Source: Parcubacteria group bacterium (GTDB lineage: Bacteria; Patescibacteriota; Minisyncoccia; JACQLN01). From it: 44,244 nt of DNA. The DNA lies in assembly GCA_016204035.1 (NCBI GenBank), contig JACQLN010000007.1:1-44244 (forward strand), read 5' to 3'. Both the position numbers and the translations under genes were made by a program. A model generated the notes under the pieces. It did not search any database. It was not told the DNA's origin and was given only the letters and a program-made list of their open reading frames with translations. Positions 2,126 through 34,799 of this stretch are shown piece after piece; within the stretch, counting starts at the first letter, position 1, and each line of letters begins with the position of its first letter.

Positions 2126-2659
2126 CTAAAATATATCAATAGTACCTTTTTTATCAACACTCACTATATGAACTTTACCTTGAAGTCTTAAATCTTTCAA
2201 AGATTTAAGAAAATCCTCCGGCAAAGGACTATACCCAATCCAAACACTCCTTTGAAGTTGACTATAACCACAACCAGTTAATTCATCCCTTATCAAATCC
2301 CTTTTTCTTCTTTCCATTTCGGGAATATCATACATCACCAACCGTGGAATACCGTCTGGTTTAATTGCTTTCTTAAAATTCAAACCGACACTAATTTTTT
2401 CCTTGCCTTTTGGTGTTAAAACCCAACTAGCCCAACGCCGATCACTTTTTTTAGCTATAAGACCTTGCTGACGTAAACGAGTAAGCACAGCCGAAAAATT
2501 AGGCCGGGAAAATTCATAACCATCGGGCAACCCTAAAACTCTACGCCACATTTTACCCTCAACGCGATTACGCGGGAACAAACTTTCTAAAGATAATTCC
2601 CCAACTTCAGAAATTTTCTCTAAGACAATCCTGGAAAAATTTTTAACTTTATCATTCAT
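2126..2659 (-). CDS. Winged-helix (PaaX-like N-terminus) fused to a Cas2-like ferredoxin-fold domain; paralog 1
   Basis: 177-aa ORF. The C-terminal part, IPRLVMYDIPEMERRKRDLIRDELTGCGYSQLQRSVWIG, matches the Cas2 beta1-alpha1-beta2 signature (hhhhYDI...R..l...L...G...lQ.SVa). The N-terminal ~95 aa look like a wHTH domain. Roughly half the residues are identical to the 39506-40033 product by eye. Confidence 0.7.
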   Translation of the reverse strand: MNDKVKNFSRIVLEKISEVGELSLESLFPRNRVEGKMWRRVLGLPDGYEFSRPNFSAVLTRLRQQGLIAKKSDRRWASWVLTPKGKEKISVGLNFKKAIKPDGIPRLVMYDIPEMERRKRDLIRDELTGCGYSQLQRSVWIGYSPLPEDFLKSLKDLRLQGKVHIVSVDKKGTIDIF

Positions 2660-3576: not shown

Positions 3577-3662
3577 AGAAACATCGTCCCGAGCGGCTCA
3601 TGGAGATGACCGAGACTACAATTGAGAGGCCTCCATGTCGTCCGCGGAGGGACGATGTTTCT
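3577..3662. repeat. Structured intergenic element, type 2 (CATGGAG core), copy 1
   Basis: Closing stem AGAAACATCGTCCC/GGGACGATGTTTCT (14 bp), inner stem CATGGAG/CTCCATG. Lies 5 nt 3' of the recJ stop codon. Confidence 0.85.
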
Positions 3663-3667
3663 GGAAT

Positions 3668-5428
3668 TCAACAAGAAGTGGTTCTGACACTATCCAGTTT
3701 TTTATAATCAACAAGCTTTAATTGTATCTCCTTACTGTCGTTCCATTCATTTTCATCCAATTCGTAAACCACATCTAAAGTGTCGCCGATTTTGAAATCT
3801 TCGGCAAGTCCGTTGTGCCGGAAAAATAAAATCGGAAATTCTTTGCCGGTTTTTTTATCATGGGCGAAAATTTTAAGATGAGCTCCGTTTTGCCCCAATA
3901 AAACCAGTTTTCTAACCTCAACATTTTTGGTTAAAAACCTGGGTTTAGGATTAGCCAGGCCAAACGGTTCAAATTTTTCCAGCAAACCCATTAAATCCCA
4001 GTTGATTTCGCCAAAAGAAACTTCGGCGTTTATATTCAGCTTTTTTCTTAATAATTCCGGAGTTAAAACTTTTTGGGCGTACTCGTTTAATTTTTCTCTT
4101 ATCGTTTCTTCGTCTTCCGCCTTAAAAGTAGAGCCCGCGGCCGCCGGGTGGCCGCCGTATTTTACCAAATATTTAGAAACATAATTGAGGGCATCTATTA
4201 AACTGAAACCGTTTACACTGCGCAACGACCCCCGGCACAAGCCATCGTCTCTTTTTTCAAAAATAAGCGCTGGCCGGTAATACTTTTCCGAGGCCTTAGC
4301 CGCGACCAAGCCGACCAAGGTCAGCGGCCAAGCCGGAGATCCTTCCATTATAAATATGGGAATTTGAGAACGCTTTAATATGGCGACATCAAGTTCTTTT
4401 AATATTTTTTCCGTAATCCGCTGGCGTTCGCGGTTGTTCTGGTTCAAAGTTATTACCAGTTCTTGAATTTTAGATTCGTCGGGAGAATTCAAAAGTTCGT
4501 AAGCCAGATTGGCATGGGCCATGCGACTGGCCGCGTTCAAACGCGGGCCCAAAGAAAAACCCAAAGTCATGGCATCCAAATTGGTTGATAACGTTTCAAG
4601 GTTGTGCCGGGCTTTGATGCCAGACGACTCCATAAGCATTTGCAAACCGACCCTTTTTGTTTTAGCTAGAACAAAAAGCCCGTATTTAACAAAAACCCTG
4701 TTTTCGCCCAGCAGCGGCACCATATCGGCCACCGTGGCCAGAGCCACCAAATCTAAAAGCCATTTGCTTTTACCCTCCGAAGCTTTATGCGTAGGAGGGC
4801 TACTTTGAGTCAAACCGAGATACAGCTTAAACGCCAGGCCGGTGCCGCACAAATCCTTAAACGGATAACTATCGCCTGTTTGGTGCGGATTTATGAAGGC
4901 CGCCGCGGCCGGCCGGCCGACAATAACCTTATGATGATCCACCACGATCATATCTACGCCGCGGTCTTTAGCCCATTGCACTTCTTTATTATTGGTAGTG
5001 CCGCAATCCAAAGTTACAATCAAGTTGGCGCCGGCCGCGGCCAACTGTTCCAGAGCATTCTGATTAACCCCATGTCCTTCTTTCTGCCGGTCAGGTAAGT
5101 AGATCTCGAAAGGATAATTTATACCCCTAAAATACTCGCTTAAAACCGTGGCCGCCGAAACACCGTCCACATCGTAGTCGGAATAGATAACAATTTTTTC
5201 TTTGGCCAGAACGGCCTTATGGATGCGTTCGCAGGCCAACCGCATGTCTTTTAATAAAAAAGGGTCGTGGAGATCCCGTTCGTACTCCGGCTTAAAAAAC
5301 CGATCTATTTTTTCGGCGCTATCCAAACCGCGCTCCCAAAGTAATTGGGGTATAATCGAAAAATATTGCTTAAATTCGGACAAAAAGTCAGAAGGTGGAG
5401 CAGGCGATAAATCCCAACGGTATTTCAT
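3668..5428 (-). CDS. recJ: Single-stranded-DNA-specific exonuclease RecJ
   Basis: 586 aa, with DHH (YSDYDVDG, DHH) and DHHA1 (GGHPAAAG) motifs. Confidence 0.9.
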   Translation of the reverse strand: MKYRWDLSPAPPSDFLSEFKQYFSIIPQLLWERGLDSAEKIDRFFKPEYERDLHDPFLLKDMRLACERIHKAVLAKEKIVIYSDYDVDGVSAATVLSEYFRGINYPFEIYLPDRQKEGHGVNQNALEQLAAAGANLIVTLDCGTTNNKEVQWAKDRGVDMIVVDHHKVIVGRPAAAAFINPHQTGDSYPFKDLCGTGLAFKLYLGLTQSSPPTHKASEGKSKWLLDLVALATVADMVPLLGENRVFVKYGLFVLAKTKRVGLQMLMESSGIKARHNLETLSTNLDAMTLGFSLGPRLNAASRMAHANLAYELLNSPDESKIQELVITLNQNNRERQRITEKILKELDVAILKRSQIPIFIMEGSPAWPLTLVGLVAAKASEKYYRPALIFEKRDDGLCRGSLRSVNGFSLIDALNYVSKYLVKYGGHPAAAGSTFKAEDEETIREKLNEYAQKVLTPELLRKKLNINAEVSFGEINWDLMGLLEKFEPFGLANPKPRFLTKNVEVRKLVLLGQNGAHLKIFAHDKKTGKEFPILFFRHNGLAEDFKIGDTLDVVYELDENEWNDSKEIQLKLVDYKKLDSVRTTSC

Positions 5429-5506: not shown

Positions 5507-5592
5507 AGAAATATCGTTCCGAGCTGCCTCATGGAGATGACCAAGACTACAATTGAGAGGCCTCCATGCCGGCTGCGAGGAACGATGTTTCT
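5507..5592. repeat. Structured intergenic element, type 2, copy 2
   Basis: AGAAATATCGTTCC/GGAACGATGTTTCT closing stem. The core is about 85% identical to 3577-3662. Lies between pgk and recJ. Confidence 0.85.
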
Positions 5593-5627: not shown

Positions 5628-6803
5628 TCAAGATTGATTTTCCAACGCAATAATCCCGGGTAATTCTTCTCCAGCTAAAAATTCCAGCATGGCTCCGCCG
5701 CCGGTGGAAACGTAAGTCATTTTATCTATTAAATTTTCTTCGGTCAAAAAACTTATTAAATCTCCCCCGCCGATTATTTTCTCGCCACGGCTTTCGGCTA
5801 CCGCCTTAGCCACCACCAGCGACCCTTTTTTGAAAGCGGGAACTTCGGTCAGACCCAGCGACCCGTTCCAAATAATCATTCTGGCACTTTTTATAACTTT
5901 TTCAAAAAGAGCCATGGTGTCGGGGCCAATATCAATAATAAATTCATTTTCTCCAACTCGCCCGATCGGCCGCACATTCAAACCATCCGGTCGATTCAGC
6001 GACCGGGAAACAGCCACGTCCACGGGCAGATGCAGATGATTGGAAACTATATCCATTTTTCTTGCCTCACTTACCAGATTTTCATCCACCATGGATTTAC
6101 CCACGGCGAGACCGCGGGCATAAAGCAGGGTGTTGGCCAAAACTCCCCCCAAAAGAATACCGTCCGATTTATCCAAAAACTCCTTAACTAATTTTAATTT
6201 GGTGTCGGCCTTGGCTCCGCCCATTATCAGCACCAGCGGCCGGCGGGGTTGGGCGCGAACCATGGATAAAACGGCTATTTCTTTTTCCAGTAAAAAACCG
6301 GCGTATGATTTTAAGAATTTGGGCAAGCCGACAATGGAAGCGTGAGCGCGGTGCGAAGCCGCGAAAGCGTCGTTAACAAACACATCGCCGTAAGCGCTTA
6401 AACTTTGGGCGAAAGTTTCGTCGTTGGCTTCTTCTTCTTTATAGAAACGAAGGTTCTCCAGTAAAACAGCCCCGCCGTTTTTTAAGTTATTGATTGCTCG
6501 TTCCACAGCAGCGCCTAAAACATCATGGCTGAAGAACAAATCCGCTAGCCACAGTTTTTTAAGCTTTTCAAAAACGGGGTACAAACTATAGTGAAGATCA
6601 TGGCCTCGGGGCCGGCCCAGATGCGCCAAAATAATTATTTTGGCGCCGGCTTGGGCCAAATAATCAAGCGTCGGCACAACCGCGCGAAGCCGCCACTCCG
6701 ACCCCGCCGGCACTTCGCCTTCCTTTATGGGCACGTTAAAATCCACCCGCACCAAAACTTTCTTGCCTTTAACATCACCTATAGATTTTAGAGAAGGCAA
6801 CAT
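5628..6803 (-). CDS. pgk: Phosphoglycerate kinase
   Basis: 391 aa, with VRVDFNVP and GGGDxxx motifs and a full-length PGK layout. Confidence 0.95.
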   Translation of the reverse strand: MLPSLKSIGDVKGKKVLVRVDFNVPIKEGEVPAGSEWRLRAVVPTLDYLAQAGAKIIILAHLGRPRGHDLHYSLYPVFEKLKKLWLADLFFSHDVLGAAVERAINNLKNGGAVLLENLRFYKEEEANDETFAQSLSAYGDVFVNDAFAASHRAHASIVGLPKFLKSYAGFLLEKEIAVLSMVRAQPRRPLVLIMGGAKADTKLKLVKEFLDKSDGILLGGVLANTLLYARGLAVGKSMVDENLVSEARKMDIVSNHLHLPVDVAVSRSLNRPDGLNVRPIGRVGENEFIIDIGPDTMALFEKVIKSARMIIWNGSLGLTEVPAFKKGSLVVAKAVAESRGEKIIGGGDLISFLTEENLIDKMTYVSTGGGAMLEFLAGEELPGIIALENQS

Positions 6804-6819: not shown

Positions 6820-7560
6820 TTAACGGGAAACAGAAACTATCGCGGCAAATTCCTCGGCGCTAAGCGAAGCGCCGCCAACGAGAGCCCCGTCAATGTAGGG
6901 CTGGCTTAAAAACTTTAGAGCGTTTTCGGAAGTCACCGATCCGCCGTATAAAAACTTTATTTTTTTAGACGGCTCGCCAAACATCTTGAAAGCGGCATGT
7001 TTTAACTCACCGATGATCTGGTTGGACCTGGCGGGGCTATCGGCTTGGGCGCCGGGCGTGGTGCTGATAGCCCAAACCGGTTCGTAAGCCACCGTCAGCC
7101 GAGCCAAGTCGGCCGTTTCCAAACCGGCCGCGCTTTTTTTGAAACTGTCTATAATTTCATCGGCCTCATCGCCCCGCTGAAGCTCGCCCACCGCGGCGAT
7201 AACATTAAAATCCTGCGCTAGCGCGGCTTTGATTTTTTTATTGACATCTTCATCGCTCTCGCCAAAAATCCGCCGGCGTTCGGAATGCCCCACCAACACC
7301 CAGCCAATCCCAACATCTTTAAGCATAGCCAACGAAACTTCACCGGTATAAGCCCCGCGCGCTTCCCAAAAAACATCCTGCGCGCCCCAAGCAATCTGTT
7401 TGAATTTTTTGACCAGTTCCTCCAAAAAAATAAAGGGCGGCAATAAAACCGTCCTTTCAAAATCTTCGGCTTTAATGGCGTAATTGACGCCCGAAGTCAA
7501 CGCTACAGCTTCATTAAGCGTGGACGGATTAAGTTTCCAATTGCCGACTATTAGTTTCAC
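6820..7560 (-). CDS. tpiA: Triosephosphate isomerase (GTG start)
   Basis: 246 aa: GNWKLN, VGHSERR, AYEPVWAI, YGGSV. Confidence 0.95.
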   Translation of the reverse strand: MKLIVGNWKLNPSTLNEAVALTSGVNYAIKAEDFERTVLLPPFIFLEELVKKFKQIAWGAQDVFWEARGAYTGEVSLAMLKDVGIGWVLVGHSERRRIFGESDEDVNKKIKAALAQDFNVIAAVGELQRGDEADEIIDSFKKSAAGLETADLARLTVAYEPVWAISTTPGAQADSPARSNQIIGELKHAAFKMFGEPSKKIKFLYGGSVTSENALKFLSQPYIDGALVGGASLSAEEFAAIVSVSR

Positions 7561-7568: not shown

Positions 7569-7663
7569 GTCTGCCGTCTTGAGCGACTTCAAGGAGGTTC
7601 CAGTTAAATTATAGAGAGAGAGGATGGAAGAGCTCCTCCTTGCAGGAGCGAAAGATGGCAGAC
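7569..7663. repeat. Structured intergenic element, type 1 (GAGCGAC-CAAGGAGG core), copy A
   Basis: Closing stem GTCTGCCGTCTT/AAGATGGCAGAC (one G.T pair), conserved core. Lies 10 nt 3' of the galT stop codon. Confidence 0.9.
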
Positions 7664-7673: not shown

Positions 7674-8705
7674 TTATGTTTTTATTCCCCTTAAATACTC
7701 CGCGGCTTCGTCGGGATCCACGTCTATCACCTCGCCGCCGGTGCCCAGTTCAAACCCGCCCCAAATGTTGAGCCGCGGGTTTATTTCCAGATGCCAATGG
7801 TAATAGTCGTATTCGTGGTCGCGTTCGGCCGGCGGGGTATGTATAAAAAAATTGTAAGCGGGGTTGTTTAAGCCGTGGTAGATCTTGGCCAAAGAAATTT
7901 TTAAGGCCTCGGCAAAATCAACCGTTTCGCCGTCGCTTATGTTTTCAAAATAGGATTGGTGCGTTTTGGGAAAAATCCTGACTTCGTAGGAAAACCTGGG
8001 CACGTACGGCACCACAGCCACAAAAGATTTGTTTTCAAAAATAATCCTTTTTTTCTCTTTTAATTCCCATTCTAAGATATCGCAGTGCACGCACCGGCCC
8101 CTTTCTTCTTTATATTTTCTGGAACCCTCCAAACTGCGGCGAACATCGGCCGGTATAAACGACAAAGCCATTATTTGCGAATGGGGGTGCGAGATGGACG
8201 CGCCGGATGGGCGGCCGTGATTATGAAATATCAAAATGTAATCGACGCACATTTTTTGCGACAACTCTAAATACCTTTCCCGATACACTTTTATTATCTG
8301 CCCCGCCTCGGCAACTTCCAGTTGGGCTAAAGACCGGCGATGATCCTTAAACACCACCACTTCGTGGTAGCCGGCATTGTCTTTAACTAAATATAGGCCT
8401 TCTTTTGATTCGGCGCGGCAGTTTTGCCCCTCCATAATGGGAAATTTATTTTTCACCACCTGAACCGCCCAACCGCTTCCATCAGCCAAAGGATATGTTT
8501 TAATCACCTCGTTGCCGTGTTCTTTGGGGTTTTCAAAAGGGCAAAGATTGATTGGGGTTTCACGTTCCGGGGTTCCGGACGACTTAAAGGCCTCCGGGCG
8601 TTTAGCCCGGCCGGTGGAAATTACCACCCAGTCCCGGCCAACCGGATCCTGGCGGAGCTCCGAAATATCTTTAGTTTTTTTATTGTTCACAAAAAAATCA
8701 TTCAC
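7674..8705 (-). CDS. galT: Galactose-1-phosphate uridylyltransferase
   Basis: 343 aa with a CPFC-type Zn site (CPFENP) and the HIT-like HPHSQI active-site motif. Confidence 0.85.
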   Translation of the reverse strand: MNDFFVNNKKTKDISELRQDPVGRDWVVISTGRAKRPEAFKSSGTPERETPINLCPFENPKEHGNEVIKTYPLADGSGWAVQVVKNKFPIMEGQNCRAESKEGLYLVKDNAGYHEVVVFKDHRRSLAQLEVAEAGQIIKVYRERYLELSQKMCVDYILIFHNHGRPSGASISHPHSQIMALSFIPADVRRSLEGSRKYKEERGRCVHCDILEWELKEKKRIIFENKSFVAVVPYVPRFSYEVRIFPKTHQSYFENISDGETVDFAEALKISLAKIYHGLNNPAYNFFIHTPPAERDHEYDYYHWHLEINPRLNIWGGFELGTGGEVIDVDPDEAAEYLRGIKT

Positions 8706-10060: not shown

Positions 10061-10432
10061 TCAACTTAATTTATCTAAATATGTCTGCAAAATTAGCGCG
10101 GCCGAAGATTCATCTATTTTTTGAGAATTTTCAGCGGCCATTTTGGAACTGAAAATTTCGTTTACGGTTTCTACGGGAGTATCGGTGCGGGCTTCCACGT
10201 CTTCGGCAAATTCCGTGATCTTATCCGCAAAATCGTTTTTTCGGCCGTCAAAACTCACCGGCACTCCCACAACGATTTTTTCTATGACTTCGGTTTTAAC
10301 AACATAGGCTAGTTCGTTTAGCAAACCGGGACCGTTGATTATGGTCTTAAAAGGCGTGGCTATTTTAAGCCGATCGTCCCCTTTGGCCAAGCCGATTCTT
10401 TTTTCGCCGTAATCTATGCTTAAGTAGTTCAT
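10061..10432 (-). CDS. ruvX: Holliday junction resolvase-like RuvX/YqgF
   Basis: 123 aa. LSIDYGEKRIGLA is a typical YqgF N-terminus. Confidence 0.85.
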   Translation of the reverse strand: MNYLSIDYGEKRIGLAKGDDRLKIATPFKTIINGPGLLNELAYVVKTEVIEKIVVGVPVSFDGRKNDFADKITEFAEDVEARTDTPVETVNEIFSSKMAAENSQKIDESSAALILQTYLDKLS

Positions 10433-10471
10433 AAATTCAGTTAATAAACGGAGTCGAGTTTCCGTTTCCGC

Positions 10472-10574
10472 CCAAGAAAAGAAACATCACCCCGAACTGC
10501 CCTCATGGAGAAGACTTTAATGTTTTTTAAGATGAGAGGCTCCGTGACAGGCAGTGAGGGGTGATTTTTCTTGG
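10472..10574. repeat. Structured intergenic element, type 2, divergent copy 3
   Basis: AGAAACATCACCCC/GGGGTGATTTTTCT closing stem. The inner stem CATGGAG/CTCCGTG has a T.G pair, and CTGCC pairs with GGCAG. Confidence 0.75.
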
Positions 10575-10646
10575 ATGTAAATAAGTAAACTCAATAGAAA
10601 ACGGAAAGTTGGCAAAATCGATTGATGAGTAAACAGTAGCCAGAAG

Positions 10647-11225
10647 TTATTTTTCTATATAGTACAACACTACCAAGGAACCTATAAAAAATAAAAATTC
10701 AAAAACGGCAATGGGGTGCAATTTGAAATAAAAATTTCTTAACCAGTGGTCGTCGCCGTGGCGACGGATAACTTCTTTAAGCTCGGCCGGCGGCCAAGAA
10801 ACCAAAAATTTGAACGAGAACTTGCCGTTCTTTTCGGAAAAAAATTTATAAGACCTGCGGGAAAACGGCCAGAGCCATTTGATACCCCACCCCATGCCCA
10901 CGCTGTCGTGCAAGAAATGGGCTAGAACCGTTAAACCGAAAAGCGCGCCATAGACCTGCCCCCAAAACCAATAAACCAGCGCCAGCACAGGTAAATACGT
11001 AAGTGGAAAATGCGTGAGTTCGCGGTGATGCCCTTGCACGCGCCCGCCCACACGGCCGCGTTTAGCCAGTTCTAGAAAAATATCCAAATCAGGCAGTAAA
11101 GAAAAACCAACTCCGGCCAGTATTAATCGGTACAACAAATCCACCTCAAAAAAATTAGATAATAAAATAGAAAATAAAATACCTACGCCAATATCTAGAA
11201 ACATAAGATAATTTTCAAGTTTCAA
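10647..11225 (-). CDS. Membrane-bound metal-dependent hydrolase (YdjM/DUF457-like)
   Basis: 192 aa, polytopic, with His-rich motifs HHRELTH and HDSVGMGWG. Confidence 0.6.
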   Translation of the reverse strand: MKLENYLMFLDIGVGILFSILLSNFFEVDLLYRLILAGVGFSLLPDLDIFLELAKRGRVGGRVQGHHRELTHFPLTYLPVLALVYWFWGQVYGALFGLTVLAHFLHDSVGMGWGIKWLWPFSRRSYKFFSEKNGKFSFKFLVSWPPAELKEVIRRHGDDHWLRNFYFKLHPIAVFEFLFFIGSLVVLYYIEK

Positions 11226-15020: not shown

Positions 15021-17867
15021 ATGGTAGCCAAGATGATCTCACCTAGTTTCAAAAAAGAATTTGATTCTCTAAACCCCGAACAAAAACAAGCGGTAGAGAC
15101 AATTGACGGCCCGGTAATGGTGGTGGCCGGGCCGGGCACGGGCAAAACGCAAATTTTAACTTTGCGCATCGCCAATATTTTAGCTAAAACCGATGCCAAT
15201 CCCGATAATATTTTATCCTTGACTTTTACCGAAGCCGCCGCCGCCAATATGCGCCGCCGGCTCACCCAGCTTATCGGCACACCGGGTTATTACGTTAATA
15301 TCCATACTTTTCACGGATTCTGTCATAAACTGATACGCGAATATCCGGAAAATTTTCCGCGGATAATCGGCGGGACCGCGGCCACTCCCGCCGACCAGAT
15401 CGGACTTGTTAGAAAAATAATAGACTCTAATAAATTAAAATATCTAAAACCATTCGGCCATAAGCATTATTACATACCCGAAATTCTAAAAAGTGTCCGC
15501 CAATTAAAAAATGAAAATATTGATCCGGCGCAATTAAAAAAAACAGCCGGCTCGCCTAGGGTTGTAGAGTTGGCTTGGATCTATCAAAAATACGTTCAGG
15601 GGTTAGTTCAAAAAAAGAAGTATGATTTTGAAGATATGATTTTAGAAACCGTCAGCGCCTTAAGGTTAAACAAAAACTTTTTGCTGGACCTGCAGGAAAA
15701 GCACCAATATATATTGGTAGACGAACACCAAGACACCAACGGCGCCCAAAATAAAATCCTGGAACTTTTAGCCGGTTACGACCCCAACCCGAACCTGTTT
15801 GTGGTGGGCGACGAAAAACAGGCCATCTTCAGATTCCAGGGCGCCAGTTTGGAAAATTTTCTTTACTTTAAGCGTAAGTTTCCCCAAGCCAAAATAATCA
15901 ACTTAAAACACAATTATCGGTCGCGCCAACATATTTTAGACGCTTCGCACAGCTTGATAGAAAAAAACACCGCGGTGCTGGCCCTAACCAAATTGAAAGG
16001 CCAAACCACCGCGCCAGACGCGGTTTTGGGTAAGATTAAAATTGCTTCATTGGGCCAACCGGAAGCCGAATATATGTTTGTGTCGGAAAAAATCAAGGAA
16101 TTGATCAAACAAAAAACGCTCCCGGGCGAAATTGCCGTGTTATACAGAGAAAATAAAGATGCCCCGCCCCTGGCCGATTTTTTATCCCGCCACAACATAC
16201 CCCATGCCGTGGAATCAGACGAAAATATTTTAGATGATATTGAAATCAAAAAAATAAACGTTTTGCTTGAGGCCATAGCCAATTTCGGTAACGATGAAAA
16301 TCTTATAAAAGCCCTGCATCTTGATTTTTTAGGCGTTGATCCGATGACCTTTTACAAAACAACGGCCCGGAACGCATTAAGTTCCAACTTGGATATAATA
16401 AAAAAACTGGCCGGTTGGAAAAAGCTAAGCTATAATTCGGCTTTCCCTAATTTTTTTGAAATAATAATTAACGAATCCGGATTCTTAAAAAATATCCTGG
16501 CCCAACCGAGCTATTATTACAAATTAGACAAACTTAAAATCCTTTTTGGCGAGATTAAAAATCTCGCCGCGGCCGACCTTAATTACAGCTTAGCCGATTA
16601 CATAAAACATATTTCTTTACTTAAAGAGCATAACCTGCCTCTTCGCTCTAAAATTACTTCTCCAACCGGCGTTGTGCGTTTAATGACCGCCCATAAAGCC
16701 AAGGGTTTGGAATTCGATTATGTGTTTATAACCGGCGCTTACAACGGCCATTGGGGCAATAAAAGAAACATCCAACATTTTGAACTGCCGCTGGTAAACG
16801 CAACCACGGAAAATATTGCCGACAAAAATGAAGATGAACGACGGCTTTTTTATATGGCTCTCACCCGCGCTCGTAAAAATATATTTATAACCTATACCAC
16901 CTTATCTCCCGAAGCCAGAGAACAGGTTCCCAGCCAGTTTATAAACGAGATTCGGCCTGATCTTAAAGAAGAAATTGACCCTTCGCCTTATCTGGCTAAC
17001 CAAGGTCTGACCTTGATATCAAGGCCGGATCTTGATAGACCAAAAACAGACGAAAAAACCTTGGTTAAAGAGATATTTCTAAAGCATGGCCTTTCACCCA
17101 CCGCCTTAAACAATTATCTGGCCTGCCCTTGGCGTTTTTTCTACGTTAATCTCTTACGGATACCCAAGACCCCAAACCGTCACCAAATTTATGGCACTGC
17201 CAAACACAACACATTGCAGATATTTTTTGACGCTAAAAAAGAAAACAGCAAACTCGGAAGTAAATTTTTAATTGACGGTTTCACCGCCCAATTAAAAAAA
17301 ATCCCGCTGACTCCGGATGATTATCAAGTTTTGCGCCACCGCGGCCGTAAAAGTATACTGGCCTACTACAACTTCTATAAAAATAACTGGAACTACAAAA
17401 CCATAAACGAATTCAAAATCTCGGGCGTTGATTTTCTTATAAATAAAAAACAAACCGTCCGCCTAACAGGTAAACTGGACAAGATTGAACTTGATCCAAA
17501 AAATCGATCAGCCGCGGTGGTGGATTATAAAACCAAAACACCCGAGAGCCGAAACTGGATTTTGGGACAAACCAAAAACTCCAACGGCGACTATTTTAGG
17601 CAATTGGTTTTTTATAAACTTTTAACCGATTCCCTGGCTTCAAAAAAATTTGAAATGGATTTTGGTGTTATAGACTTTACCGAGCCCGATACCCAAGGGC
17701 GCTTTAGAAAAGAAACTTTTCAAATCTCTAACGCCGATGTTGCGTTGTTAAAAGAAACCATCGCCCGCGCGAGCGATGAAATTATAAATCTAAAATTTTG
17801 GGATTCCCGTTGTAACCAAAAAGACTGCGAATTTTGCGAATTACGGGAACTGATGAGGAAAAAATAA
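15021..17867 (+). CDS. UvrD/PcrA-type superfamily 1 helicase fused to a C-terminal PD-(D/E)xK (Cas4/AddB-like, Cys-cluster) nuclease
   Basis: 948 aa. Helicase motifs are AGPGTGKT, DEHQDTN, VGDEKQAIFRFQGA and TAHKAKGLEFD. The C-terminus has CPWRFF, VVDYKT, QLVFY and CNQKDCEFC. Confidence 0.85.
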   Translation: MVAKMISPSFKKEFDSLNPEQKQAVETIDGPVMVVAGPGTGKTQILTLRIANILAKTDANPDNILSLTFTEAAAANMRRRLTQLIGTPGYYVNIHTFHGFCHKLIREYPENFPRIIGGTAATPADQIGLVRKIIDSNKLKYLKPFGHKHYYIPEILKSVRQLKNENIDPAQLKKTAGSPRVVELAWIYQKYVQGLVQKKKYDFEDMILETVSALRLNKNFLLDLQEKHQYILVDEHQDTNGAQNKILELLAGYDPNPNLFVVGDEKQAIFRFQGASLENFLYFKRKFPQAKIINLKHNYRSRQHILDASHSLIEKNTAVLALTKLKGQTTAPDAVLGKIKIASLGQPEAEYMFVSEKIKELIKQKTLPGEIAVLYRENKDAPPLADFLSRHNIPHAVESDENILDDIEIKKINVLLEAIANFGNDENLIKALHLDFLGVDPMTFYKTTARNALSSNLDIIKKLAGWKKLSYNSAFPNFFEIIINESGFLKNILAQPSYYYKLDKLKILFGEIKNLAAADLNYSLADYIKHISLLKEHNLPLRSKITSPTGVVRLMTAHKAKGLEFDYVFITGAYNGHWGNKRNIQHFELPLVNATTENIADKNEDERRLFYMALTRARKNIFITYTTLSPEAREQVPSQFINEIRPDLKEEIDPSPYLANQGLTLISRPDLDRPKTDEKTLVKEIFLKHGLSPTALNNYLACPWRFFYVNLLRIPKTPNRHQIYGTAKHNTLQIFFDAKKENSKLGSKFLIDGFTAQLKKIPLTPDDYQVLRHRGRKSILAYYNFYKNNWNYKTINEFKISGVDFLINKKQTVRLTGKLDKIELDPKNRSAAVVDYKTKTPESRNWILGQTKNSNGDYFRQLVFYKLLTDSLASKKFEMDFGVIDFTEPDTQGRFRKETFQISNADVALLKETIARASDEIINLKFWDSRCNQKDCEFCELRELMRKK

Positions 17868-17964
17868 AAACATCATTCCGAGCGACTTCAAGGAGGTTCC
17901 AGTTAAATTATAAAGAGGGAGGATGGAAGAGCCCCTCCTTGCAGGAGCGAGGGGTGATGTTTTT
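17866..17964. repeat. Structured intergenic element, type 1, copy B, between convergent genes
   Basis: Closing stem AAAAACATCATTCC/GGGGTGATGTTTTT (two T.G pairs) with T-runs on both sides. It could terminate both the helicase gene and rpoD. Confidence 0.9.
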
Positions 17965-17972: not shown

Positions 17973-19172
17973 CTAATATTCTTTTAACTTTTGTATCCTC
18001 TCGTGCGCGCGAATTTTGTCTAAGGCCTTGGCTTCTATTTGACGGATGCGCTCGCGGGTTACGCCAAACTCTTTGCCCACCTCCTCAAGCGTATGCGTGG
18101 CTCCATCTTCCAAACCAAAACGCATCTGCAGAATTTTTTGTTCGCGGGGCGAAAGATCGGTAATAATTTCTTTTATTTGATCGCGCAACAGTTGATGCGC
18201 CGCCACCTGCGAAGGCAATAAAGTTTTTTCGTCTTCAATAAGTTCGCCTAAAGTGCTATCTTCGTCGCTGTCGCCCACCGGAGATTCCAACGACACGGCC
18301 TCCTGGGTTATTTTTTGGATATGGCGAACCTTGGTAACGTCAATATCCATTTCCTGGGCGATCTCTTCGGCCAATGGTTCGCGGCCCAAATCCTGCAACA
18401 ACCGCCGCTTAACCTGGGTATATTTGGAAATAGTTTCCACCATATGCACCGGAATACGGATGGTGCGGGCCTGATCGGCCAAGGCCCGGGTAACCGCCTG
18501 GCGGATCCACCAGGTGGCATAAGTGGAAAATTTATAACCCTTGCGGTAATCAAATTTTTCCACGGCCTTGGTTAAACCGATATTGCCCTCTTGAATCAAA
18601 TCTAAAAGGGTTAAGTGCGAACTCCGCCCCACGTATTTTTTGGCAATGGAAACCACTAAGCGTAAATTGGCCTGGGTCAGTTTTTGGCGGGCGTCTTCGT
18701 CGTTTTTTTCTATCCGTTTGGCCAATTCCACTTCTTCCGGACCGCGCAACAACGGCACCCGGCCGATTTCACGCAAATAAATTTGCACGGAATCATAAAC
18801 CGGCCCGGTACCGGCCCCGGTCTCGCTTTTCTTAAGCCGTTCTTTGTCGGGCGGCGCCACCGCAAGCCGTTCTTGGGAACCTACCACTTTTATATTTAAG
18901 GTTTCCAGGTGCCGGTACAGATGTTCCAAACCGGAAATATCTTCTTCTATATTGGGAAAGGTTTGGATAATTTCGGATTCCGTGATAAAACCCCGGCTCC
19001 GGCCCCGCCTAACAATATCGGCTAATTTTTCTTCGGTAACAATAGAGGGCTTGGTTTTGGAACGAGTGTGTTTTTTAGGCCTGATTTTGGTTGAATGCTT
19101 TTTAGCCGGCCGGGACGGTTTATTTTTTTTAATAAAACGGCGCGATTTATTTTTACGTTTATTTTTTTTCAT
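17973..19172 (-). CDS. rpoD: Primary RNA polymerase sigma factor
   Basis: 399 aa with regions 1.2 to 4.2 ([41 protein letters not shown]) and a basic N-terminal tail. Confidence 0.9.
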
Positions 19173-26961: not shown

Positions 26962-27059
26962 TCCGCGGTAGCTCAGAGTGTTGAAGGTACCTCTTCAACC
27001 GGCAGAGCCGCCAGCCGCGAGCTGGCAGGTCGGTGGTTCAAGTCCACCCCGCGGAACCA
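26962..27059 (+). tRNA. tRNA-Arg(GCG)-like gene with a 20-nt hairpin inserted in the D-loop and C at position 33
   Basis: Manual fold. The acceptor is TCCGCGG/CCGCGGA with A73 and an encoded CCA. The D stem is GCTC/GAGC, with the hairpin at 26980-26999 inside the loop. The anticodon stem is GCCAG/CTGGC with loop CCGCGAG. The variable loop is AGGTC and the T arm is GGTGG-TTCAAGT-CCACC. Confidence 0.7.
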
Positions 27060-27096: not shown

Positions 27097-27113
27097 AATC
27101 ACCTGTCTTTAGA

Positions 27114-27863
27114 AAGGGCGGTCCTTCCCATAAATTTCCTAAGAATTTTCATTATTTTTATAAGAAAGCCAGTCAAAAACAAAATCTTTGAAGATTCTCT
27201 TTGAACCAAAATAATCCGGAAAAACTTCAGTATTCAAAATTTTCCTTTCCAATCTTTCAATACCAATATAATCAAAATAACTTGAGTAACTGTAATCACT
27301 CAAAAATTTCTGCGCAGCAAAACTATTCTTAATACCAATCTCTTTCCAGTTAGATTCTATCAATTTAATAGGATTCAAATGTATGTAGGCGAAAACATAC
27401 TTTAAATATTCATCTTTACTAATATGTTTTGCCTGAAACCTGCTTTGAAACAAGGAGCCGTCGCGCTCATATTTTTTATTGAAATACATAGAATAGCCAG
27501 TGGATACTTTACCCATAAATTTAGAAACACCTCCGACTTCTGTTTCTTTTACAAGTAAATGAAAATGATTCGGCATGAGTACATAAGCGCCTAGAGCAGT
27601 AATAAGGTCACCAGTATCTATGGACAGAATATCCCGGAAGGACCGCCCTTCCTGAATATGCTCTGCAATATCAACAGGATTGTTGCTATTGCAGAGATAA
27701 AGAAGCATTAAAAAACGTCTATAATCCATATCTGAACCAAATATAAACCTCTTATCTACACCCCGATTATAGATGTGATAATATTCATCCAAAGAAAAAT
27801 CAAAACCACGTTCCATATAACCTATTATAATCCCTTAGGAAATTTATGGGAAGGGCGGTCCTT
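27114..27863 (-). mobile_element. IS200/RAYT-like unit: a Y1 transposase gene bracketed by composite repeats
   Basis: A 17-bp perfect inverted repeat is present: CCCATAAATTTCCTAAG (27127-27143) with CTTAGGAAATTTATGGG (27834-27850). A 13-bp direct repeat AAGGGCGGTCCTT lies at 27114-27126 and 27851-27863. Confidence 0.65.
27139..27816 (-). CDS. IS200-like / REP-associated tyrosine (Y1, HUH) transposase
   Basis: 225 aa: YHIYNRG, HUH motif MPNHFHLLV, catalytic Tyr region YIHLNP. TATAAT lies 7 nt upstream of the ATG (leaderless). Confidence 0.8.
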   Translation of the reverse strand: MERGFDFSLDEYYHIYNRGVDKRFIFGSDMDYRRFLMLLYLCNSNNPVDIAEHIQEGRSFRDILSIDTGDLITALGAYVLMPNHFHLLVKETEVGGVSKFMGKVSTGYSMYFNKKYERDGSLFQSRFQAKHISKDEYLKYVFAYIHLNPIKLIESNWKEIGIKNSFAAQKFLSDYSYSSYFDYIGIERLERKILNTEVFPDYFGSKRIFKDFVFDWLSYKNNENS

Positions 27864-27869
27864 TTTAGA

Positions 27870-28484
27870 TTATGGAACAAATTCCGGGCCTTTGTCTTTG
27901 TAGGCCTTGATGAACTTTTTTATGCGCGCTGCGTCAAAATAATCAAATTTATCCAAACGCCCCCAAGCGGCCAAAGCAATCGGCGAATCGTTGGCCGAAC
28001 GGGGCGATAAAACAATTTTTCTTTTGTATTCCCCGGCCAAGCGTTTAAGATTATCCACCAGTTCGCTTGGAACATCGGGTCTATAGGTTATCCAAATGCC
28101 GCCGTGCTCCAGGTTATGAATCACGTTTTGATCTATCAACTCTTCATTATAGCTACCCCACTCCGTAGTTTGACCATAATGCCAGCCCGAGACCGGCGGA
28201 TTGGAAAGATAGATGCCCGGGATTGGCTGGCCCGGTTGAATATGCTCGGCCGGTTGAATAGGCACGGCCTCGCCGGGCTTATCGGCCTCTGATTTTTTAG
28301 CCCACAAATACGCGCCCCAAACCAAGGCCGCCAAAATCAAAACCGAAACGATCCATTTTAATAATTTCTTTCTTTTGCGCGAGGTCTCAAAACCGGCCCG
28401 GATATTTTCTTCTTCCTGGCGCCTTAGTTCCCTGCGATCTTTTTTAGACAACTCTGTCTGTGATTCTTGTGGTTGTTCTTCCAT
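27870..28484 (-). CDS. DUF3105-like membrane-anchored protein
   Basis: 204 aa with an N-terminal TM and the HNLEHGGIWITY motif. Confidence 0.6.
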   Translation of the reverse strand: MEEQPQESQTELSKKDRRELRRQEEENIRAGFETSRKRKKLLKWIVSVLILAALVWGAYLWAKKSEADKPGEAVPIQPAEHIQPGQPIPGIYLSNPPVSGWHYGQTTEWGSYNEELIDQNVIHNLEHGGIWITYRPDVPSELVDNLKRLAGEYKRKIVLSPRSANDSPIALAAWGRLDKFDYFDAARIKKFIKAYKDKGPEFVP

Positions 28485-29526: not shown

Positions 29527-30321
29527 TTATTCGGAAATTATCACAAACACCTGTTTTAAGTCGCGCAAATTAAAAAACGGCCGCACCGACGATTTTTGAA
29601 ACGGCGAAGCAGCGTCCCGAGCAACCTTAACCACTTCCCCTACTAAAAGGCCCCTTCTAAAAACTCCCTCCAGACCGGACGTCAACAAAATCTGACCGGC
29701 CTTTAATTGCGCCTCTTTAAGCACTAAATCTAAAGTTAAAGCGCCACTGGCCGAACCGCTGACTACGCCTTTTATTTGGTCATCTTCAGAGGTTGCGGTT
29801 ACACGACTTTTAGACGAAGTTATCAATAATACTTGGCTTTCCTTTTGGCCCACATCCTTAATTTGGCCTACTAATATGTTACCCGGAAGAACCACCGTGT
29901 CATTAACCGTTAAACCATCCCTTTGGCCTTTGTCTATAACCAATGAATCGGCGGCCTGGAAAGGATCAAAAGAAAGAATTGCGCCTAAAACCATTCTGCG
30001 GCTGCCTTCTTTTTTTAAGTCCAGGGCCTGTCTTAAAAATTCGTTTTCCCGACTCACCCCTAATAATTTGAAATACTCGCCTCTAAAAAAATCGCGCTGG
30101 TTTTTCAAAAACAAGTTTTCCCGAATCACCCCTCTTACCCCAAAAACATTCTTAAAAAGAAAAAATCCTTCTTCTCCCCAACGTTCAACCGTTCCGGTAA
30201 CCGGACTCACGGTCCAGCGGCGAACCAAATTGACGGTAGAATCAAAAAAACCGACTCGGTCCAAAAAGAACAGGGCCAGAAAAGTTAATAAAAATAAAAA
30301 TATTTTCTGCCACCTAAACAT
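29527..30321 (-). CDS. mreC: Rod shape-determining protein MreC
   Basis: 264 aa with an N-terminal TM, a coiled coil, and the MreC beta-barrel region (VVLPGNILVGQI). Confidence 0.85.
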   Translation of the reverse strand: MFRWQKIFLFLLTFLALFFLDRVGFFDSTVNLVRRWTVSPVTGTVERWGEEGFFLFKNVFGVRGVIRENLFLKNQRDFFRGEYFKLLGVSRENEFLRQALDLKKEGSRRMVLGAILSFDPFQAADSLVIDKGQRDGLTVNDTVVLPGNILVGQIKDVGQKESQVLLITSSKSRVTATSEDDQIKGVVSGSASGALTLDLVLKEAQLKAGQILLTSGLEGVFRRGLLVGEVVKVARDAASPFQKSSVRPFFNLRDLKQVFVIISE

Positions 30322-30331: not shown

Positions 30332-30428
30332 GTAGATTACCGCCGAGCGACTTCAAGGAGGTTCCAGTTAAATTATAAAGAGGGAGGATGGAAGAGCCCC
30401 TCCTTGCAGGAGCGAGGCGGAAATCTAC
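30332..30428. repeat. Structured intergenic element, type 1, copy C
   Basis: Closing stem GTAGATTACCGCC/GGCGGAAATCTAC; the core is identical to copy B. Lies 14 nt 3' of the mreB stop codon. Confidence 0.9.
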
Positions 30429-30442: not shown

Positions 30443-31504
30443 TTACTCTTTGGGCGTAGTTGCATACTCTTTGGCGGCTAAAAGTTCGCGGTATTTTTCG
30501 GTTTCTTCCAGCACAATGCCGGTGCCGCGAGCCACCGCGGTCAACGGGTCTTCGGCCACTTTTACGGCAATGCCGGTTTCTTTGTTTATCAATTCGTCTA
30601 TGCCTCTTAACAAACTGCCGCCGCCGGCCAGCACAATACCCCGCTTCATAATATCGCTTAAAAGTTCCGGCGGGGTTTGCTCCACTATCTCGCGCACCAC
30701 ATCCACCAAAGTTTTTACCGATTTCGTTATAGCTCTTTTCACTTCTTTAGACGTAACCACCACTTCTTTAGGCAGACCGGTAATAAGATCGCGGCCGCGC
30801 ATGGTGGTTTCCAGCTTTTCATTCAGATCCACCACGGCCGCCACCGCTATTTTAACATCCTCGGCCGTGCGCGGGCCTAAAAGCAAGTTGTATTCATCGC
30901 GGGCCAGCTGGATAATATCTTCATTCAGCCGTTCGCCGGCCACCCTTAAACTGCGCACGGCCACCAAACCGCCCAAAGATATCACCGCCACCTCGGTGGT
31001 GCCGCCGCCAATGTCCACAATCATGTTGCCCAGGGCCTCCTGAACCGGCAAGCGCGCGCCTAAAGCCGCGGCCACCGGCTCTTCTATAAGCATAACCTCC
31101 CGCGCGCCGGCGTTGCGGGCCGCTTCTTCCACCGCTTTTTTTTCCACCTCGGTTACGCCGGAAGGAATGCCTATCACCACCCGCGGCCGGGGCACCATAT
31201 AAAAAGAGTCGCCGTGGACTTTCTGAAAAAAATACTTAAGCATCTGTTCGGTAATATCAAAATCGGAAATCACGCCGTCCACCAGCGGTTTTACGGCGGC
31301 AATATGCCCGGGCGTGCGGCCGACCATTTTTCTGGCCTCGCGACCTATGGCTAAAATTTGTCCGGTCTTTTTGTTAATTGCCACCAACGAGGGCTCGTTA
31401 ATGACAATACCCCGGCCCTTAACATAAACAAGGGTGTTGACCGTTCCCAGATCAACACCGATGTCTTTGGCAAAATGACCAAACAGTCTATTGAGTAGAT
31501 ACAT
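30443..31504 (-). CDS. mreB: Rod shape-determining protein MreB (paralog 1)
   Basis: Actin-fold motifs DIGVDLGTVNTLVY and DIGGGTTEVAV. The start is set at MYLLNRLF (M12 of the track ORF). Confidence 0.9.
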   Translation of the reverse strand: MYLLNRLFGHFAKDIGVDLGTVNTLVYVKGRGIVINEPSLVAINKKTGQILAIGREARKMVGRTPGHIAAVKPLVDGVISDFDITEQMLKYFFQKVHGDSFYMVPRPRVVIGIPSGVTEVEKKAVEEAARNAGAREVMLIEEPVAAALGARLPVQEALGNMIVDIGGGTTEVAVISLGGLVAVRSLRVAGERLNEDIIQLARDEYNLLLGPRTAEDVKIAVAAVVDLNEKLETTMRGRDLITGLPKEVVVTSKEVKRAITKSVKTLVDVVREIVEQTPPELLSDIMKRGIVLAGGGSLLRGIDELINKETGIAVKVAEDPLTAVARGTGIVLEETEKYRELLAAKEYATTPKE

Positions 31505-31566
31505 ACTTAAATTCGAAATCCCAAATCCGAAATCCAAAACAATATCTAAATACTAAATTATAAACC

Positions 31567-31638
31567 CTAAACAGTTTAAGATTTGTGATTTTAATCATTG
31601 GAATTTGTTTAGAATTTAGTGCTTCGTGCTTCGGATTT
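31567..31638. repeat. 72-nt conserved intergenic element type 4, copy 1
   Basis: About 85% identical to 43891-43962. It ends ...TTTAGTGCTTCGTGCTTCGGATTT, abutting the proS stop codon. Confidence 0.85.
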
Positions 31639-32884
31639 ATATATTTTTGAACCATTCTACTATATTATCCAACTTGACCATCTCCACCTTCTCACTCTCA
31701 CGTCTTTTGACCTCCACGCTTTCTTTTTCCAAGGTTTTATCGCTGATAATAATTCTATAAGGCGCGCCGATCAAATCGGCATCCGACAATTTTACTCCCG
31801 GCGATTCGTCGCGGTCATCCCATAAAACCTCAGCTGATTCCGCGGCTATTTGCTGGTATATTTTTTCCGCTTTAGGAGCGGCCCCGCCCAACGAAACCAG
31901 ATGAATTTTGAAGGGTGCCGCGGCCGCGGGCCAAACCAAACCGAAATCATCGTTAAACATTTCGGCTAAAACCCCAACCAAACGACTCATACCAATGCCG
32001 TAACTGCCCAAATAAGCCGGTTTTAACTGGCCGTCGGCATTCTTAAAGTTAACTCCCATTTTTTCCGAATAAACCGTGCCAAACCGGAAGATGTTTCCAA
32101 TTTCAATGGAACTGGCTGTTTCAACTTCGCCGCCGCACTCGGGGCATTGGGCACCGATTTTGTGGATGTGTATTTCTTTATTGTGGGCCCAGTCGCATTT
32201 GGCGCAGTGGTAAATTGTGTCCTCGCCCACCGGATGAATAACCTGAAACTCGTGGGTATGCCCCGAAGTGAACACCCCGCCCGAGGCCTCTACCGTTTTA
32301 ACATTTTCTAAACCCAGACGCTTAAAAATTTTTAAGTAAGCGCCCGCGACCTGCCAATAAAAATTATCCAGATCTTCTTCGGCGCTATGCAAACTATAAA
32401 GATCTTTCATTATAAACTCGCGGCCGCGCAACAAACCCGACTTGGCCCGGGGTTCGTTTCTAAATTTAGTGGAAAAATGATACAGCTTGACCGGCAGGTT
32501 TTTATAACTTAAAGAATGCTTACGGACCACATCTAAAAAAATTTCCTCGTGCGTAAATGAAAGCCCGTACTCTCGATCATCAACCGATTTGAACTGGTAC
32601 ATTATTTCTTTAACGCCTTTATCGCCCCAGCGGCCGGTTTCGTTCCAAACGTCTTTAGGATGCAATAAAGGCATCAACACCTCGCCGCCGCCGATGGCAT
32701 TCATTTCCTGGCGCACGATTTCTTCTATTTTTTGATAAACCCGCCAGCCCAAAGGCAAAAAAGTGTACGACCCGGCCATCAATTTGTCTATAAACCCGCC
32801 CCGCAACAGCAGTTTGGCGTTAATAGAAGTTTCGTCCTTGGGATTAGAACGCAGCGTGTTGATAAAAGATTGAGAATAAAGCAT
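31637..32884 (-). CDS. proS: Prolyl-tRNA synthetase, short form without the INS editing domain
   Basis: MLYSQSFINTLRSNPKDE... has a bacterial-type N-terminus and class II motifs, with CAKC...CPEC in place of the insertion domain. The start was moved to an ATG 5 codons inside the track ORF. Confidence 0.85.
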   Translation of the reverse strand: MLYSQSFINTLRSNPKDETSINAKLLLRGGFIDKLMAGSYTFLPLGWRVYQKIEEIVRQEMNAIGGGEVLMPLLHPKDVWNETGRWGDKGVKEIMYQFKSVDDREYGLSFTHEEIFLDVVRKHSLSYKNLPVKLYHFSTKFRNEPRAKSGLLRGREFIMKDLYSLHSAEEDLDNFYWQVAGAYLKIFKRLGLENVKTVEASGGVFTSGHTHEFQVIHPVGEDTIYHCAKCDWAHNKEIHIHKIGAQCPECGGEVETASSIEIGNIFRFGTVYSEKMGVNFKNADGQLKPAYLGSYGIGMSRLVGVLAEMFNDDFGLVWPAAAAPFKIHLVSLGGAAPKAEKIYQQIAAESAEVLWDDRDESPGVKLSDADLIGAPYRIIISDKTLEKESVEVKRRESEKVEMVKLDNIVEWFKNI

Positions 32885-33367: not shown

Positions 33368-33373
33368 CTGAAT

Positions 33374-33409
33374 CCCCCAAGATGGCGATCGCCATCTTGG
33401 GGGATTTTA
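33374..33409 (+). terminator. Rho-independent terminator (30-bp perfect palindrome)
   Basis: CCCCCAAGATGGCGATCGCCATCTTGGGGG followed by ATTTTA. Confidence 0.8.
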
Positions 33410-34785: not shown

Positions 34786-34799
34786 TTAAGAGCAAAGGA

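Follow-up and report, generated by a model that had tools for sequence, protein, structure and literature searches.

Palindromic intergenic hairpins with a conserved apex and variable closing stems: a probable family of mobile repeats in Patescibacteria

The ERIC (enterobacterial repetitive intergenic consensus) or IRU (intergenic repeat unit) sequences, the Correia (CREE), RUP and BOX elements, the Rickettsia palindromic elements and other miniature inverted-repeat transposable elements (MITEs) have conserved terminal inverted repeats (TIRs) and, usually, target-site duplications. Palindrome-associated elements derived from IS200/IS605 are marked by two different subterminal hairpins, both conserved, and by a 4-5-nt target that is likewise conserved. 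The attC sites of integrons have conserved basal R''/R' core sites (RYYYAAC / GTTRRRY) and a variable middle, and they come with a cassette array and an integrase. The repetitive extragenic palindromic (REP) sequences of E. coli and Pseudomonas, with the bacterial interspersed mosaic elements (BIMEs) and the REP doublets known as REPINs, are mobilised by REP-associated tyrosine transposases (RAYTs) of the Y1/HUH type (PMC3116915, PMC5581495); the defining property of a REPIN-RAYT system is that the repeat flanks the transposase gene (PMC5581495). Here we describe a family of intergenic hairpin elements found in contig JACQLN010000007.1 of a Parcubacteria group bacterium, analysed over its whole stretch of 44,244 nt (the window); assemblies of the same organism elsewhere come in fragments of 1-2 kb. 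The window has eight copies, five of type 1 (A to E) and three of type 2 (F to H), all on the + strand. We consider it probable (about 0.6) that they belong to a new non-autonomous family of mobile palindromic intergenic repeats, comparable to REP, BIME, REPIN, ERIC and MITE sequences, in Candidatus Sungbacteria-like bacteria of the Candidate Phyla Radiation (CPR). The host is a very small groundwater bacterium, and the copies would have spread only recently between its housekeeping genes.

Comparison with close relatives (whose loci are cited by number, L101 and so on) showed that copies were gained or lost between ~94%-identical genomes, and that they behave as mobile intergenic repeats and not as fixed regulatory RNAs. 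The window and L101 share their gene order over ~20 kb, with 90-95% nucleotide identity (~94%). Where the window holds C, D and E, no copy was found in the 60 kb of sequence syntenic with it from L101, L103 and L104. For example, the spacer between mreB and mreC has 121 nt in the window, where it holds copy C, compared to 2 nt in L105 and L106 and 14 nt in L103, all three without an element. The same junction has a different 145-nt hairpin element in L101, a third hairpin family in L107 and L109, and a fourth in L104 and L110. Between galT and tpiA, where the window has copy A, the stop and start codons of L022 overlap (TAATG) and there is no element. Downstream of rseP, other hairpins stand in L101 and L108 where the window has copy D, and L107 has a type-1 copy with a closing stem unrelated to that of D and at a different offset. 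Between the second mreB and holB, L101 and L103 have 31-33 nt with no element, and L106 has a type-2 copy where the window has one of type 1. These are the general properties of a mobile repeat, that is, dispersed copies and presence/absence polymorphism at orthologous sites in close relatives.

A first-pass annotation, made from the window sequence alone, had missed this polymorphism between close relatives. We also observed a case of persistence: L005 and L007, two species-level assemblies, share an orthologous type-1 copy that is ~93% identical, and the coding sequence beside it is ~95% identical (both figures by eye). The ends of short contigs frequently fall within 200 nt of a copy or immediately after mreB, which is expected when repeats interrupt an assembly, and the family probably explains assembly breaks after certain genes in these organisms.

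At least three other hairpin families were seen at the same junctions (L101:11092-11236, L103:8347-8464, L107:2622-2729, L101:7857-7953, L104:5080-5164 and L110:2137-2213). Two of them also show a conserved core with differing closing stems; the co-resident families t3 and t4 appear to be built alike, with a private stem around a conserved core.

All eight window copies fold as a single long hairpin of ~85-125 nt, with z-scores of -5.7 to -7.5 relative to shuffled sequence and a closing stem of 12-14 bp at the base. In type 1, the closing stem is followed upward by GAGCGA on each arm, by CTT facing CAG, by the 8-bp stem CAAGGAGG/CCTCCTTG, and by a loop of ~37 nt that carries a conserved purine motif, AAAGAGGGAGGATG. 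In type 2 the same base (closing stem and GA) carries a middle stem of 5-6 bp, then the CATGGAG/CTCCATG stem and last a loop with GAGAGG at its end. The basal consensus AAAYATC-N5-GA is common to both types, and a 49-nt 'mini' copy at L009:1670-1718 has the base and only a stub of the apex. As we read the sequence, the facing GAGCGA blocks would pair antiparallel (G.A, A.G, G-C, C-G, G.A, A.G) and make the hairpin a continuous rod. Two diverged copies, L013:7478 and L013:1280, have Watson-Crick pairs in place of the outer G.A tandem, and the type-2 copy of L005 has TA on both arms where other copies read GA, so that TA could pair with TA; because of these replacements we take the G.A positions to be part of the helix.

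Two known architectures were considered for this fold and set aside. A kink-turn does not agree with the sequence as read, since the region that borders the GA tandems, CUU/CAG, is a symmetric 3x3 one in which two pairs could form, and there is no one-sided 3-nt bulge. The architecture of a TIGR array does not fit either. In the type-1 loop (e.g., window 17914-17924), GGGAGG changes along with the 3' arm of the inner stem in L010:2120 and L013:1280; on these few variants, an alternative helix is possible. An extra hairpin, GGACTAACCTTAC..GTAAGGTTAGTCC, whose outer pairs covary, was seen at one fixed type-1 position in four assemblies (window 33537-33566, L001, L013:465-587 and L018). In the window it is nested in copy D, where its 30 nt interrupt the 3' arm of the inner stem.

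A scan of species-representative genomes with a 25-base pattern found 22 copies at 20 loci in seven assemblies, labelled Parcubacteria, Patescibacteria, Yanofskybacteria, Minisyncoccia, 'bacterium' or Saccharibacteria. Within the window, a 34-nt core probe had four matches at ≤3 mismatches compared to 0.00 expected from shuffles. We then built two covariance models, R1 from 23 type-1 copies and R2 from eight type-2 copies. Searches with these models over the loci of relatives, a check that the first-pass annotation had proposed, raised the total to 45 copies (32 of type 1, 12 of type 2 and one mini) in ~10 Patescibacteria/Parcubacteria assemblies. The two types had been thought to form one superfamily, and we agree that they are related, because R1 also finds type-2 copies and R2 type-1 copies, on the same strand and with 30-46 bits.

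Within the sampled sequence the family is confined to these bacteria. The covariance models gave no credible match in 925 kb of pgk loci from metagenomes, almost all of other bacteria (only two of the loci were close relatives, and the rest served as a negative control), and the core pattern had 0 matches in viral contigs. Among named relatives, a Candidatus Sungbacteria assembly is the closest; its MreB is 98% identical to that of the window. The 'Saccharibacteria' label on two assemblies is doubtful, and a spread across phyla was rejected: one of the two, CAYJTN, has MreB 91% identical to that of the window and the same gene order. Rfam 15 gave 0 matches in the window at gathering thresholds, which agrees with the earlier suspicion that the motif had not been described. 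A permissive search gave no family either; its best sub-threshold match was the lactis-plasmid RNA (RF01742), at 23.7 bits compared to a gathering threshold of 70 (E = 0.056 on 151 nt). It has a similar long stem broken by GAA.CGA / GAG.GA purine blocks; however, its apical part is unrelated and a type-2 copy gives no match, so the elements are not members of this family.

The predicted structure is reflected in covariation. Among 33 type-1 copies, 94.3% of the alignment cells form standard pairs, compared to 43-52% after a shift of the 3' partners by 1-3 columns, in an alignment that was fitted to the model and for this reason favours structure. Changes on both sides occurred at 17 of the 26 pairs (at 14 of 26 in another analysis; over the two, 94-95% of cells pair, vs 43-54% after the shift), and the observed covariation score was reached in 0 of 500 shuffles. 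In the closing stem, 12 of the 14 pairs take 3-6 standard pair types, and the innermost two take 2 and 4. Since most pairs take so many types, the covariation of the closing stem, already claimed from the window copies, is not an alignment artefact. The inner stem showed compensatory change as well, with the pair 26-105 being A-U in 29 copies and G-C in four. In type 2 all three helices covary; for the inner 5 bp of the closing stem this agrees with the earlier description.

The histories of cores and closing stems are different. Cores are 89-92% identical between copies, and the closing stems have a median identity of 42%. As described earlier, the type-1 closing stems of the window differ from copy to copy, with one stem common to B and D. 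Another is common to L007 and L019, and because both stems are shared between different loci, whole-hairpin copying does occur. On the other hand, copies B and C have cores identical at 70 of 70 positions inside unrelated closing stems. Simple copy-and-paste of a whole hairpin is insufficient for such cases, because 100%-identical cores sit in unrelated stems. The decoupling may be due to gene conversion that homogenises the cores, to apical modules moving between older hairpins, or to stems made at insertion. Empty hairpins with a GAGCGA loop were close in number to the chance expectation. On its mreC side, copy C has an arm similar to the native spacer that precedes the start codon of mreC in L101 and L104, a similarity that may be due to chance.

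To compare the two strands, each copy was folded with Watson-Crick pairs only, and the isolated mismatches were then classified. In the 45 copies the core strand has 34 G.U/U.G and 9 A.C/C.A mismatches (p = 1.7e-4). Five of the nine A.C cases are the same A.C + U.U pattern in type-2 copies and were read as one conserved internal-loop position. The core strand is also lower in RNA folding energy in 40 of the 45 copies, with means of -37.6 vs -31.5 kcal/mol. With respect to the host gene, the ratio of G.U to A.C is 9 to 2 in sense copies and 25 to 7 in antisense copies. The asymmetry is thus equal in both, so the strand constraint belongs to the element and not to the mRNA in which it is embedded. 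For the window copies, the + strand is more stable in 8/8 with RNA parameters (by 1-11 kcal/mol) and in 7/8 with DNA parameters. The wobble and energy data would fit either RNA or single-stranded DNA. The first-pass annotation had suggested from the stem mismatches (G.T, A.A and others, with totals that our recount reproduced) that the selected hairpin may be that of the + strand and not the 3' UTR (untranslated region) of the host mRNA. This suggestion stands, since the core strand carries the G.T wobbles, and the bias, which might have disappeared with more copies, persists.

The copies nearly fill very short spacers, typically 2-30 nt from either neighbour gene. With one element per 5.5 kb, the window has copies within essential operons (mreBC, galT-tpiA-pgk-recJ). 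The coordinates and strands given earlier for the eight copies, and the identities of galT, rpoD, mreB, rseP, the second mreB, recJ, pgk and the YdjM-family gene, were all reproduced. Two statements on placement stood in part. The distance of 5-35 nt from the stop codon of a - strand gene is right for seven copies; for copy H, reported at 74 nt, we obtained 72 nt. The single orientation, 3' of - strand genes, is right for all eight window copies and not in general: of the 45 copies, 28 run antisense to the genes beside them and 11 run sense, with 6 mixed cases. For the copies beyond the window the numbers are 22 antisense to 11 sense (p = 0.08); the uniform antisense placement in the window is a local accident or a weak bias. 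L013 has both orientations within 2.4 kb. In L005, L007, L008 and L019 a type-2 copy stands beside a type-1 copy in the opposite orientation, which recalls BIME clusters. On the element strand, 36 of the 45 copies have a negative GC skew, which tracks gene orientation; the effects of replication and transcription are therefore inseparable.

T-runs follow the hairpin on the - strand in copies B and D, and in B also on the + strand; the six intercistronic copies have none. A simple terminator scan flagged a sub-hairpin with a T-run in B and D. The stop of a UvrD/PcrA-like helicase gene on the + strand adjoins copy B, which thus lies between convergent genes. In other assemblies the 3' flank of the copies is often an A-run. 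A scan flagged no promoter of the element's own; a lone TATAAT without a -35 element was seen by eye on the bottom strand. A small open reading frame (ORF) was rejected, as GGAGGATG, which runs into an open frame in the window, is followed by TAA in other assemblies, and the ORF is not conserved. Copy H is enclosed by a further inverted repeat, 10458-10467 / 10598-10608 (GTTTCCGTTT / AAAACGGAAAG), which resembles the closing stem of a different hairpin family at L101:7857-7953. A perfect 17-bp palindrome (GAATCCCCCAAGATGGCGATCGCCATCTTGGGGGATT) near copy D, at 33370-33407 (+), was flagged as terminator-like.

The window has one gene for a RAYT-like Y1/HUH protein. The sole NCBIfam match of the protein is 'REP-associated tyrosine transposase' (E = 7.6e-13, below the cut-off of the model), and the motifs HUH (NHFHLL) and YIHLNP are present. 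The genome thus has a gene of RAYT type, a type defined by HUH, a catalytic Tyr and the Y1_Tnp domain. The gene block 27097-27870 is missing from L101, which also has no elements, and orthologues stand at the same place in L105 and L106, which do carry elements; this co-occurrence is seen over a handful of loci. A private 13-nt motif, AAGGACCGCCCTT, occurs at both flanks of the gene (27114-27126 and 27851-27863) and once inside it on the other strand (27638-27650). The same arrangement, a short hairpin of its own at both flanks and once inside the gene, was seen for all four Y1 genes, the one of the window and three in relatives. The motifs are three in all: AAGGACCGCCCTT, which occurs only at this gene and is common to the orthologues in L105 and L106, GTTCAACATTGAATGTTGAAC and GAATGACATCGGATGTCATTC. 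Other private hairpins were seen at Y1 genes of L105 and L106. No match of the covariance models adjoins any Y1 gene, and tblastn of the 20 pattern loci found no Y1 gene. Because the Y1 genes are flanked by these other hairpins, the elements and the Y1 gene do not form a REPIN-RAYT system. A tRNA-Gly (anticodon ACC) called directly downstream of the Y1 gene, at 26962-27059 (+), is unusually long at 98 nt, possibly due to an intron or insertion.

If the elements are mobile, they would be copied via a single-stranded intermediate, with an enzyme that recognises the hairpin of the top strand. By analogy with the action of HUH/Y1 transposases on REP sequences and IS200/IS605 ends, single-stranded DNA seems the more likely intermediate, and RNA is possible. 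The recognition surface would consist of the apical core and the GA motif. The basal stem may be a structural clamp for which only pairing is needed, and which would then drift by compensatory change. Copies inside operons may be tolerated because the hairpin would bring the upstream stop codon and the downstream start codon together again, and antisense insertions may be commoner because the mRNA then carries the weaker hairpin. The operon-end copies B and D may serve secondarily as terminators.

Several observations weigh against a mobile repeat. The centre of the element is conserved and its ends are variable, the reverse of TIR-based MITEs and REPINs. No transposase was linked to the element, and the motifs at the four Y1 genes examined neither resemble it nor are dispersed. 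We saw no consistent target-site duplication, recurrent direct repeat or target motif at the hairpin boundaries, in an automated boundary calling that was noisy and with empty and filled sites too diverged for an exact check of target-site duplication. Under DNA parameters the strand asymmetry of the window copies is only 0.5-2.3 kcal/mol, compared to 1-11 kcal/mol for RNA, a difference that speaks for RNA. In 36 of 45 copies the top strand coincides with the C-rich strand, which would be the leading-strand template if the skew reflects replication, opposite to the IS608 rule, in a comparison confounded with gene orientation. Identical cores in unrelated stems, as in B and C, were found also in L006/L009 and in L008/L017, within their own genomes. 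Finally, the high conservation of the core across several assemblies could instead mean a host function.

Such a function would be that of a structured RNA: a cis element in polycistronic mRNA (an RNase III-type processing or stability site, or a clamp for translational coupling) or a family of small antisense RNAs, with the conserved apical loop and its Shine-Dalgarno-like GGAGG/GGA binding a protein or the ribosome. The strong conservation of the core across ~10 assemblies would fit, and so would the placement of copies exactly between stop and start codons and the L005/L007 orthologous copy that persists. G.U and tandem G.A pairs are typical of RNA, the strand asymmetry is far larger under RNA parameters, and a possible alternative helix is suggested by diverged copies, in which the loop purine motif and the 3' arm change jointly. 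However, 28 of the 39 clear cases are antisense, so that the mRNA carries the weaker complement, and the wobble asymmetry does not depend on orientation. Moreover, the promoter scan found no promoter-like site, the flanks are not conserved and no Rfam family matches. The ~94%-identical relative has no copy at any of the three shared sites, and unrelated hairpins occupy the same junctions in other relatives. We therefore consider host RNA unlikely. That the elements are chiefly intrinsic, partly bidirectional, transcription terminators is very improbable. The T-runs of B and D, and the sub-hairpins flagged there, agree with this role, but no T-run is present in six of the eight window copies or in most copies elsewhere, which are internal to operons and have the next start 2-30 nt away. 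The A-runs at the 3' flanks in other assemblies do not agree with termination either, and termination has no need of a conserved 37-nt loop.

Another explanation retains mobility and changes the mobile unit. Apical modules might insert into, or be exchanged between, older basal hairpins, or the basal stem might be made anew, e.g., by fold-back synthesis copying adjacent sequence. This would explain the identical cores in unrelated stems and the GAGCGA direct repeat. The decoupled histories of core and stem (B-C, L006-L009, L008-L017) agree with it, as do the basal consensus common to both types, the nesting of further hairpins (the extra hairpin at one fixed position in D, L001, L013 and L018, and copy H inside another inverted repeat), the similar closing stems of a type-1 copy of the window and the type-2 copy of L106 at the same junction, and the likeness of the mreC-side arm of copy C to the native spacers of L101 and L104. 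On the other hand, empty GAGCGA-loop hairpins are not above chance, the empty junctions of relatives hold no hairpin, the stems shared by B/D and by L007/L019 at different loci show that whole hairpins are copied, and gene conversion between the 70-nt cores would give the same pattern. We regard this explanation as rather improbable. Equally doubtful is its extended form, in which the basal stem is not inherited at all and would be generated or exchanged at each insertion (by fold-back copying, or by an apical module homing into hairpin tips), the element then spreading by a mechanism so far undescribed, directed by structure, in which the GA-motif/apical core would be recognised on one strand. 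If so, ultra-small CPR genomes would contain hairpin-forming mobile DNA of a new class.

The coordinates of the copies, of the parts of copy B and of the genes are given in Table 1.

Table 1. Elements, parts of copy B and genes in the window.
Feature	Position	Strand	Remarks
Copy A (type 1)	7569-7663	+	between galT and tpiA; closing stem GTCTGCCGTCTT/AAGATGGCAGAC, found once in the window
Copy B (type 1)	17866-17964	+	between the stops of the helicase gene and rpoD; R1 107.9 bits
Copy B, closing stem	17866-17879 / 17951-17964		
Copy B, GAGCGA	17880-17885 / 17945-17950		
Copy B, CTT/CAG	17886-17888 / 17942-17944		
Copy B, inner stem	17889-17896 / 17934-17941		CAAGGAGG/CCTCCTTG
Copy B, loop	17897-17933		37 nt
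Copy C (type 1)	30332-30428	+	between mreB and mreC
Copy D (type 1)	33471-33594	+	downstream of rseP
Copy E (type 1)	38258-38354	+	between the second mreB and holB
Copy F (type 2)	3577-3662	+	between recJ and RNase HI gene; R2 86.8 bits
Copy G (type 2)	5507-5592	+	between pgk and recJ; R2 90.3 bits, R1 41.3 bits
Copy H (type 2)	10472-10574	+	between YdjM-family gene and ruvX; R2 70.5 bits
recJ	3668-5428	-	
pgk	5628-6803	-	
tpiA	6820-7560	-	
galT	7674-8705	-	
ruvX	10061-10432		
YdjM-family gene	10647-11225	-	
UvrD/PcrA-like helicase gene	15021-17867	+	
rpoD	17973-19172	-	
Y1/HUH protein gene, RAYT-like	27139-27816	-	225 aa; Pfam Y1_Tnp PF01797, 35.2 bits (cut-off 23)
mreC	29527-30321		
mreB	30443-31537	-	
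rseP	33618-34715	-	
holB	37517-38251		
Second mreB	38360-39364	-	

Some other features of the window were observed. The block 34761-35634 has CCCCGCCCTT...AAGGGCGGGG hairpins at its boundaries, is missing in L101 and resembles a further small mobile cassette; its ORF 34800-35456 (- strand, 218 aa) has no Pfam or NCBIfam match. A TAACCTTAC-containing sequence, as in the extra hairpin, was seen also near the site of this 218-aa cassette in L101. A second intergenic repeat has two copies, 31555-31643 and 43879-43967, which are 83% identical, one of them between proS and mreB. Short direct repeats with 89-98% identity were found at 1222-1871 (183/612 nt apart) and 41807-42613 (650 nt apart). Two paralogous small proteins have a PaaX central Cas2-like domain, 2126-2659 (-) and 39506-40033 (+), and the latter gene is followed by one for a 434-aa protein without a family match.

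CPR/Patescibacteria genomes are ~1 Mb and tightly packed, yet this contig carries the elements within essential operons. The family is a marker of very recent genome change between near-identical uncultured strains, and offers a natural setting in which to study the copying of a hairpin whose apex is conserved and whose base varies freely. If transcribed, the elements would shape operon expression in organisms with few known regulators.

With the preferred reading, that of mobile repeats, the likeness is closest to REP, BIME and REPIN sequences. These are also short extragenic imperfect palindromes that are abundant and of several sequence types, that stand just after stop codons and inside operons, form clusters of alternating orientation and have strand-specific hairpin features; their copies persist and turn over between relatives, and RAYT-like genes are in the same genomes. 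However, REPs have 20-40 nt, a conserved 5' tetranucleotide and a sequence conserved as a whole within a genome, and a REPIN is two inverted REPs around a spacer. The element is a single hairpin of 85-125 nt with arms that are not palindromic, a conserved apex, a base that varies and no REP doublet architecture. In the literature searched we found no description of REP-, REPIN- or MITE-like repeats in CPR/Patescibacteria.

With ERIC, CREE, RUP, BOX, the Rickettsia elements and other MITEs the family shares a length of ~100 nt, a long hairpin when transcribed, a place between operon genes in either orientation, larger variants with internal insertions at fixed positions, and insertion polymorphism between strains. 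Unlike in a classical MITE, the termini are the most variable part and no target-site duplication was seen. The IS200/IS605-derived elements are alike in a single-strand hairpin (theirs recognised by a Y1 transposase), in the lack of terminal inverted repeats and target duplication, and in strand bias. They differ in the two hairpins and the target, which were not found for the element, and in the opposite orientation relative to GC skew, which is confounded with gene orientation. In attC sites, too, the stem changes in sequence under a conserved structure, the form that is recognised arises from one strand only, and the sites stand 3' of genes. Membership in attC was rejected, since in the element the stem bases vary, the neighbours are housekeeping genes in conserved synteny, the annotated ORFs include no integrase and the window has no cassette array. 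By membership tests, the family is outside both the REPIN-RAYT and the TIR-MITE classes, and its combination of a conserved apex with a freely varying basal stem is unusual.

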